From the sequence record PV778520.1: a stretch of 59,541 nt of DNA; one strand, written 5' to 3'. Source of the stretch: Escherichia phage RCIP0359. Under the pieces are notes generated by a model. It saw nothing but the letters and a program-made list of their open reading frames with translations, did no database searches and was not told the DNA's origin. Positions 9,117-9,922 of this stretch are shown here, piece after piece. Each line of letters begins with the position of its first letter. Position 1 is the first letter of the stretch. The translations under genes were made by a program, and so were the position numbers.

Positions 9117-9524
9117 ATGACCGACACCAAAAAAGCTAAAGTTGCAGTAGCTAAAAGCTTCCGTGATTTTAAAACTGTGAGCCGGGCAAATGATCCGGCA
9201 AACACTAAGCCTATGAATGTGGTTATTCCTGGTGTAGGCGACACTGGCGAAAAACTCTACATTCGTAGCCGTTACTGCACAGAGTATCGTGACGCAGAAT
9301 TGAAAGCACAACGTCAACTGTTGGCGCTTATGCAGGGTAAAGACGGTGAAGTAACGGATGCTATGAAGGAAGACATCCTTACCCGTTCACTGTGTAATCT
9401 TGTAGCAGGTTGGACCTTTGATGAGCCTCCAACCGTTGACAACGTGTTTGAGTTCTTAACGGAGAACCCAACTGTCCGTGAAGACCTTAACGTATTTGCC
9501 GCTAAAGATAGTAATTTTTTCTAA
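9117..9524 (+). CDS. tail assembly chaperone (G-like, zero-frame product)
   Basis: 135 aa ORF directly upstream of tape measure gene; ends with slippery run AATTTTTTC TAA. Confidence 0.7.
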   Translation: MTDTKKAKVAVAKSFRDFKTVSRANDPANTKPMNVVIPGVGDTGEKLYIRSRYCTEYRDAELKAQRQLLALMQGKDGEVTDAMKEDILTRSLCNLVAGWTFDEPPTVDNVFEFLTENPTVREDLNVFAAKDSNFF

Positions 9525-9922
9525 AAGCGCGCAGACAGTTAATTGATAAGAAGATCCTCCAATGGGAACTAAATAGTAAAGTCCCCGGCGGGGGATCTTC
9601 TTTATTATCGCAACTGCAAAAGGTTGAGGAACAGTCTGGTAAGACGCCACCTAAGCTTAAAGAATATCGGGAAAAGGAAATACCGCTTTGCTTCGAATAT
9701 CTATCTACTTTATTTGATGATATCTACACTGGAGGAGATTTTAGTTATACAGAATTGCACAGCTATCAAGTGACAATGGGCTTACATCTTCAACCGTACG
9801 AATGCGAAATACTGCGGCAGCTATGGCTTGAAAAGCGCGTGTCAGAAGCTGAACAAAATGCTAAACTCATGGAAAGTCAAATGCAAAATCAAAATAAAGG
9901 TAGAAGAAAAAGGAGAAGATAA
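9117..9922 (+). CDS. tail assembly chaperone, predicted -1 frameshift fusion product (GT-like)
   Basis: -1 frame is open from 9515 to the TAA at 9920-9922 with no plausible start of its own (first ATG far inside); slippery heptamer T TTT TTC at 9515-9521 just before the zero-frame stop; extension ends 1 nt overlapping the tape measure ATG. Confidence 0.5.

Follow-up and report, generated by a model that had tools for sequence, protein, structure and literature searches.

A Seuratvirus-type −1 ribosomal frameshift on the slippery heptamer T_TTT_TTC very probably yields a GT fusion protein in Escherichia phage RCIP0359. The window, i.e. the whole stretch of 59,541 nt of sequence record PV778520.1 that was analyzed, is from a Seuratvirus with 95–99% identity to Seurat, CAjan, and CSP1, and the region of interest is 93–99% identical in about 33 Seuratvirus phages (Queuovirinae), including several BASEL phages. 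Evidence for the shift comes from the geometry of the reading frames, from homology, from coding selection on the extension, and from conservation of the heptamer and of the RNA structure adjacent to it. The mechanism has long been known, this instance of it is already annotated, and published phages are nearly identical to this one; G/GT frameshifting in general is textbook material (PMC5009743). The one mildly unusual part, and the only one that merits an experiment, is a stable hairpin conserved 3′ of the slip site at a much greater distance than is normal for such hairpins.

Gene order and overlap of the reading frames

Criteria for the G/GT class follow Xu et al. 2004, and membership is judged here from sequence. 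The order of genes is tail terminator, tail tube, G, T, and tape measure (Table 1), with G and T positioned between the tube gene and the tape measure gene as those criteria require, and the predicted GT fusion has 268 aa and a mass of about 30.9 kDa. The G/GT arrangement, as originally predicted, is supported by this gene order, by frame geometry, by homology, and by the comparative data given below.

Table 1. Features at the G/T junction and in the neighboring tail genes (positions in the window).
Feature	Position	Strand	Evidence or remark
Tail terminator gene	7720–8169		PF13554
Tail tube (major tail) protein gene, upstream neighbor	8184–9107	+	PF18906 Phage_tube_2, E 2.4e-43; PHROG 290
Gene G, tail assembly (tape measure) chaperone, 135 aa, zero frame	9117–9524	+	ORF list; PHROG 313; PHROG 569
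Final −1 frame stop TAA, directly 5′ of heptamer	9512–9514	+	Read from sequence
Slippery heptamer T_TTT_TTC	9515–9521	+	X_XXY_YYZ phase, read from sequence
Zero-frame stop TAA of G, directly 3′ of heptamer	9522–9524	+	Read from sequence
T extension, 133 codons from CTA 9521, plus stop TAA 9920–9922	9521–9922	+	PF23812; PHROG 569
RNA stem-loop, 64 nt	9544–9607	+	MFE −28.2 kcal/mol, z −4.80; inverted repeat
AAGGAG, tape measure ribosome-binding site	9909–9914	+	Read from sequence; annotated in Seurat record
Tape measure protein gene, 1038 aa	9922–13038	+	PF20155 TMP_3, E 1e-59; PHROG 339, E 4e-181

Gene G is preceded by an AAGGA ribosome-binding site and was claimed to end in AAT TTT TTC TAA; it does so (AAT at 9513, TTT at 9516, TTC at 9519, TAA at 9522), and the heptamer is in phase. 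Inside G the −1 frame is interrupted by 20 stops in 133 codons, from 9137 to 9512, and the last of these, which is found as the same TAA in Seurat, Skure, STP-SP5, yong3, and Vid5, is the 5′ limit for any productive shift. Beyond it the −1 frame is free of stops for 135 codons, up to a TAA that overlaps the tape measure ATG (9922–9924) as TAATG, which bears out the open frame that had been proposed from the heptamer to this stop. An open run of this length has a chance of about 3e-10 at the stop density within G and of about 5e-4 at the stop rate of random sequence, about 5.5%. The +1 frame is closed at 9544. The zero frame and the −1 frame are open at once over the seven heptamer bases and nowhere else, and a productive shift is therefore possible only there. 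The original prediction also held that the −1 frame has neither a start codon nor a ribosome-binding site of its own. The first part is correct for the initial 80 codons and incorrect afterwards, the earliest starts (ATG, GTG, or TTG) being TTG 9755, GTG 9770, and ATG 9776, while the second part stands, as no ribosome-binding site precedes 9755–9776.

Two further features of sequence composition may be mentioned. The palindrome GCGCGC at 9527–9532, 5 nt 3′ of the heptamer, provides Ala-Arg codons in the −1 frame and is unchanged, synonymous positions included, in Seuratvirus and in Vid5, which belongs to another genus; the AAAAGCGCG repeat recurs at about 9830–9838. The sequence TTTTTTC occurs 10 times on both strands of the window, compared with 21.5 ± 4.6 expected from dinucleotide shuffles, and every shuffle had at least the observed count, which fits avoidance of slippery runs. 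Two of the copies, at 34607 and 34622, have a spacing of 15 nt.

Membership in the tail assembly chaperone family can be read from sequence matches of both parts. G matches PHROG 313 “tail assembly chaperone” (E 3e-11) and PHROG 569 (E 3e-26), with a score of 14.3 bits against Pfam Phage_TAC_4, below the cut-off of 21.1, and the T extension matches PF23812 Phage_TAC_18 over residues 37–106 of the extension (38.8 bits with a cut-off of 27; E 1e-9). On PHROG 569 the two parts are placed back to back, G on positions 11–126 and the extension on positions 129–256, and this family was evidently built from fused proteins. Searches of PDB and NCBIfam with the GT sequence gave chance-level matches to Rof only and no relative of solved structure by sequence. 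The T extension has a basic C-terminal tail, GRRKRRR, whose purine-rich codons house the tape measure ribosome-binding site, so the tail sequence and the binding site constrain each other, and with the TAATG overlap, translation of the tape measure could be coupled to that of GT. At the other end of the region, a G+C-rich inverted repeat, CCCGCGTTTTAGCGGG, is found at 9085–9100, at the end of the tail tube gene just 5′ of G. It is terminator-like on the minus strand only, and a putative terminator is annotated at the equivalent tube–G junction of the Nonagvirus HdK1.

The frameshift was found to be annotated in the Seurat record (KM236243.1), where a two-piece joined CDS “tape measure chaperone” carries the note “ribosomal slippage (10236)”, corresponding to about position 9518 of the window. 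The same genes are involved (CPT_Seurat13/14; AIW03877.1 and AIW03876.1), the DNA is 97% identical, and the Seurat GT protein (AIW03876.1, 268 aa) differs by one residue (D59E) from the protein predicted here, with the same junction, DSNFF|LKARRQ. The Seurat entry is based on annotation rather than experiment and leaves the hairpin unmentioned, with otherwise no substantive difference. The deposited 268-aa protein UIU26730.1 has this junction too, SA126VB is a second record with a 268-aa fusion, and public records name the exact G protein “tape measure chaperone”. The Seurat genome paper lists only “tape measure chaperone”, and the papers on Vid5 and on comparative genomics of Seuratvirus are without mention of a frameshift. 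No genetic or proteomic experiment on the two products turned up for Seuratvirus in the literature. The chaperone entry of the window should accordingly be a joined CDS of 268 aa. Naming in databases is uneven, with RefSeq NC_027378.1, NC_028776.1, and NC_028831.1 as well as PHROG 569 labeling G and GT “tail length tape measure protein”, a mislabel that spreads to newer records, e.g. KS_W4 and Dru_SM1.

Conservation of the heptamer, the extension, and adjacent RNA structure

The homologous region of 13 further phages was compared with that of the window, the lineages covering Seuratvirus, Nonagvirus, Vidquintavirus, Craquatrovirus, Amoyvirus, and Pseudomonas phages of 62–63% G+C, with identity of the extension down to 22%. 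In all 14 lineages the transition to the −1 frame occurs at a T_TTT_TT[C/A] that is in X_XXY_YYZ phase. IMG/VR was scanned in addition with a degenerate DNA pattern made from conserved residues 35–60 of the extension, the heptamer being excluded against circularity. There were 22 matches, 19 of them true relatives and three chance matches, and TTTTTT[C/A] was positioned exactly 108 nt upstream in 19 of the 19 true relatives. A slippery sequence within the overlap, which is characteristic of the G/GT class, is thus present throughout both sets. The zero-frame stop adjoins the heptamer in Seuratvirus, Nonagvirus, and Kpn2-P2 and is 3–93 nt away in the other relatives. The T domain aligns without gaps, and its conservation starts with the first residue after the junction. 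Over the 78 codons that precede any start, differences by codon position in the −1 frame were 2/2/20 relative to Skure and 15/5/33 relative to STP-SP5, and this concentration of substitutions at the third position indicates that the stretch before the starts evolves as protein in the −1 frame. The third-position bias begins at the junction, as expected of a second ORF without its own start in the G/GT class. Conservation of the junction, of the heptamer, and of the codons before any start rules out a sequencing artefact.

In K4PH164-like Klebsiella phages (L012, positions 892–901; also L026, L029, L039, and L040) the junction is CTT_TTT_TTA_AAG, in which two in-phase heptamers overlap, T_TTT_TTA and T_TTA_AAG, the latter being much the stronger. 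In L012 the zero-frame stop is 18 nt beyond these heptamers.

The stem-loop 3′ of the heptamer is unusually stable, in that none of 200 dinucleotide shuffles was as stable as the 64-nt sequence. Its core is the 10-bp inverted repeat that had been reported at 9548–9602, which is exact (AAGAAGATCC at 9548–9557 and GGATCTTCTT at 9593–9602) and extends to 13 bp including one G-U pair (9548–9560 with 9590–9602), the top of the stem being G+C-rich. The repeat had been placed about 27 nt downstream of the heptamer; it does lie downstream, with an exact spacer of 26 nt to the core or 22 nt to the extended stem. The original prediction was also right to leave the role of the repeat unclear, since the hairpin is real but lies beyond the spacing of known stimulators. 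In the 13-bp arms there were no third-position changes in Skure or STP-SP5 and one in yong3, and outside the arms 29–47% of third positions changed (29% in Skure, 47% in STP-SP5).

Structure z-scores were calculated in 12 lineages for 80-nt windows moved along the sequence between −300 and +320 relative to the heptamer. Away from the 3′ side of the heptamer the mean z over these lineages was mostly −0.8 to +0.5, with an extreme of −1.2, and at window starts 0, 10, and 20 nt past the heptamer it was −3.0, −3.4, and −3.3, followed by −2.6 at 30 nt. Excess RNA structure across the 12 lineages thus occurs only just 3′ of the heptamer. One longer fold contained a helix, GCCGCU/AGCGCGC, enclosing the heptamer, and this was dropped as there is no excess structure across lineages at offsets of −60 to −20. 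The hairpins are not positionally homologous between genera, and even the close pair K4PH164 and L029 uses different arms. RNAalifold predicted no shared pairs in a gapless codon-registered alignment of 10 lineages. Within the genus no covarying pair was detected among six distinct sequences, the stem being invariant except for uncompensated changes at its foot in yong3 and STP-SP5, and Rfam had no match at threshold, only generic hairpins (miRNA type) and an sRNA (RAGATH-25) below it. That a stable hairpin has been kept after the slip site while its sequence was replaced argues for selection on structure.

An alternative explanation could be that the hairpin at 9544–9607 is mainly a partial intrinsic terminator, or an element that stabilizes or processes mRNA after the stop of G, and not a stimulator. 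The tape measure and the distal tail genes would then be expressed less than the tube and chaperone. This is consistent with a terminator-like score for the upper stem with its T-rich tail (GTCCCCGGCGGGGGAT CTTCTTTATT, 9581–9596), with a spacer of 22–26 nt that is unlike that of a classical stimulator, and with the fact that most ribosomes are already off the mRNA at the hairpin. Terminator-like matches are, however, not enriched in the region (5, compared with 3.0 ± 1.8 in shuffles), and the T-rich tail is missing in Nonagvirus, Kpn2-P2, and K4PH164. In the distant phages Ab18, Baskent, and R7M, moreover, the structure tracks the slip site and not the stop. It starts 6–7 nt after the heptamer, in agreement with canonical spacing, and the structured element is 36–93 nt before the zero-frame stop, inside translated G. 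Because the structure in these phages adjoins the heptamer and not the stop, it appears tied to the shift rather than to termination. We regard a main role in termination or mRNA stability as unlikely.

A different route to the same fusion could be transcriptional slippage, in which RNA polymerase adds an extra U on the T6 run and the fusion is then read normally from a minority of mRNAs. An inserted U would give an identical protein, the homopolymer has 6 T in the window, with Nonagvirus and the Pseudomonas and Alteromonas relatives having 7, and slippage-prone runs have been discussed as a frame-independent hazard (PMC4066793). Against this, the run always ends in X_XXY_YYZ phase, which is relevant to the ribosome only, although shared ancestry weakens the argument, and a conserved RNA structure immediately 3′ of the site characterizes ribosomal shifting. 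Productive slippage in bacteria generally needs runs of about 8–9 or more. The run was no longer than 7 in all 33 genomes examined, and slippage by the polymerase is very improbable as the source of GT.

Least credible, and only barely so, is the absence of any recoding, with a separate small gene starting internally at TTG 9755, GTG 9770, or ATG 9776, as suggested by stub ORFs deposited for SeppeHuegi and CSP1C (48 aa), Skure (70 aa from TTG), and STP-SP5, yong3, and Vid5 (104–114 aa), since the annotated starts vary between phages, the roughly 80 codons before the first start are conserved as protein with the third-position bias described above, the TAC_18 match is mostly upstream of the proposed starts, PHROG 569 spans G and T together, and the candidate starts have no ribosome-binding site before them. 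The stubs of 48–114 aa that many related records list under “hypothetical protein” or “tape measure chaperone” are rather gene-caller artefacts. A separate irregularity occurs in HdK1 (L016, MK373794.1) at about 1180–1296, where the −1 product departs from its Nonagvirus relatives after “...ELIR” and passes the tape measure start. The tape measure annotation there is a short “tape measure domain protein”, and an indel or sequencing error near the 3′ end of T is the apparent cause.

Probable frameshifting on a weak heptamer

We infer the ribosomal nature of the shift, its efficiency, and the roles of the two proteins. The heptamer U_UUU_UUC has been classed as frameshift-prone in E. coli and is among the shift sites of IS elements (Sharma et al., PMC4066793). 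Shifting there was measured at 0.121% for the heptamer with no stimulator, at 0.89% when the IS911 stimulators were present, and at 7.6% when the IS3 pseudoknot was (PMC4066793 supplement). T_TTT_TTC is thus a site that can work but is weak unaided. On the proposed mechanism, the majority of ribosomes would read AAT TTT TTC, terminate at TAA 9522, and release the 135-aa G, and a small fraction would move back one base on T_TTT_TTC. This could take place by a tandem slip of two tRNA-Phe from UUU/UUC to UUU/UUU or by a slip of the P-site tRNA-Phe while a slowly decoded UAA occupies the A site, and both routes would give an identical product. Shifted ribosomes would read CTA 9521 as the first of 133 codons in all and complete the 268-aa GT at the tape measure start codon. 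By analogy to lambda, the G part, alone and within GT, may coat the tape measure protein, the T part may recruit the tail tube protein, and assembly of the tail may need a fixed low ratio of GT to G, with neither protein remaining in the virion.

It is possible that the adjacent zero-frame stop is a “shifty stop” context that aids the shift, and this stop and the hairpin may raise shifting above the approximately 0.1% of the heptamer alone in E. coli. An upstream Shine-Dalgarno-like stimulator was looked for by eye, and none was seen in the 20 nt before the heptamer. A weak heptamer and a hairpin at 22–26 nt would not by themselves account for lambda-like shifting of a few percent.

Comparison with known systems places the window between several of them. 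The G/GT genes of phage lambda, in the work of Levin et al. 1993 and of Xu, Hendrix and Duda 2004, 2013, and 2014 as summarized in PMC5009743, share with the window two overlapping ORFs between the major tail gene and the tape measure gene and a −1 shift near the end of the first ORF that gives a short and a C-terminally extended product. They differ in the heptamer, which is G_GGA_AAG in lambda as opposed to T_TTT_TTC, in the zero-frame stop directly 3′ of the heptamer and the stable conserved hairpin at 22–26 nt in the window, and in the lack of detectable sequence similarity to lambda G or T. We know of no stimulatory structure that the lambda G/GT shift needs. The signals of E. coli dnaX and of IS911/IS3 share a heptamer with 3′ RNA structure, read by E. 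coli ribosomes, but there the structure is 5–9 nt after the heptamer, often with upstream Shine-Dalgarno-like help, compared with 22–26 nt here. T7 gene 10A/10B (G_GUU_UUC) has in common a −1 shift close to the end of a late structural coliphage gene, at a site of UUU_UUC type, and a 3′ stimulatory element at a non-canonical distance (PMC5009743). It differs in that the element is more than 200 nt away, in the terminator, and in that the product is a minor capsid protein and not a chaperone, and it is itself regarded as an unexplained long-range exception to stimulator spacing (PMC5009743).

Spacing of the hairpin and its significance

Known 3′ stimulators start 5–9 nt, rarely 12–15 nt, from the shift site (PMC5009743), and the stem in the window starts at 22 or 26 nt, outside this range, so the signal is not counted among the canonical ones made of a heptamer and a hairpin. 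The spacer would shrink to 14 nt with a weak 5-bp extension seen in a longer fold, but this extension is not conserved in STP-SP5 or yong3. Spacers to the main stem are about 20–38 nt in the other enterobacterial relatives; Seuratvirus, Nonagvirus, and Kpn2-P2 group at 25–28 nt, K4PH164 has 31 nt, and Vid5 has 35–38 nt.

One way in which a hairpin at such a distance might stimulate shifting involves two ribosomes. The first, having already shifted, would pause as it unwinds the G+C-rich upper stem, which begins about 32 nt after the heptamer, and would hold a follower on T_TTT_TTC, unable to translocate, such that frameshifting would become cooperative and dependent on ribosome load. Smith et al. 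found that trailing E. coli ribosomes shift most when 9 codons (27 nt) behind a stalled one (PMC6815119), and the distance to the upper stem of about 32 nt equals the usual 5–8 nt plus the 27 nt spacing of collided ribosomes. Only ribosomes that have already shifted reach the hairpin, however, so the gain from collision would be small, and stimulation by this route is distinctly improbable.

For the G/GT paradigm the frameshift itself offers nothing new. What merits attention is that a weak heptamer (0.12% unaided in E. coli) persists throughout the phage family and that each genus re-invents a stable hairpin beside it, in the enterobacterial branch at about 20–38 nt rather than 5–9 nt. If the hairpin stimulates shifting, the known range of spacing for bacterial stimulators would be extended, and if stimulation acts through collided ribosomes, the spacing of 6–7 nt in the distant phages and that of about 20–38 nt in enterobacterial Queuovirinae would be two solutions to the same problem.
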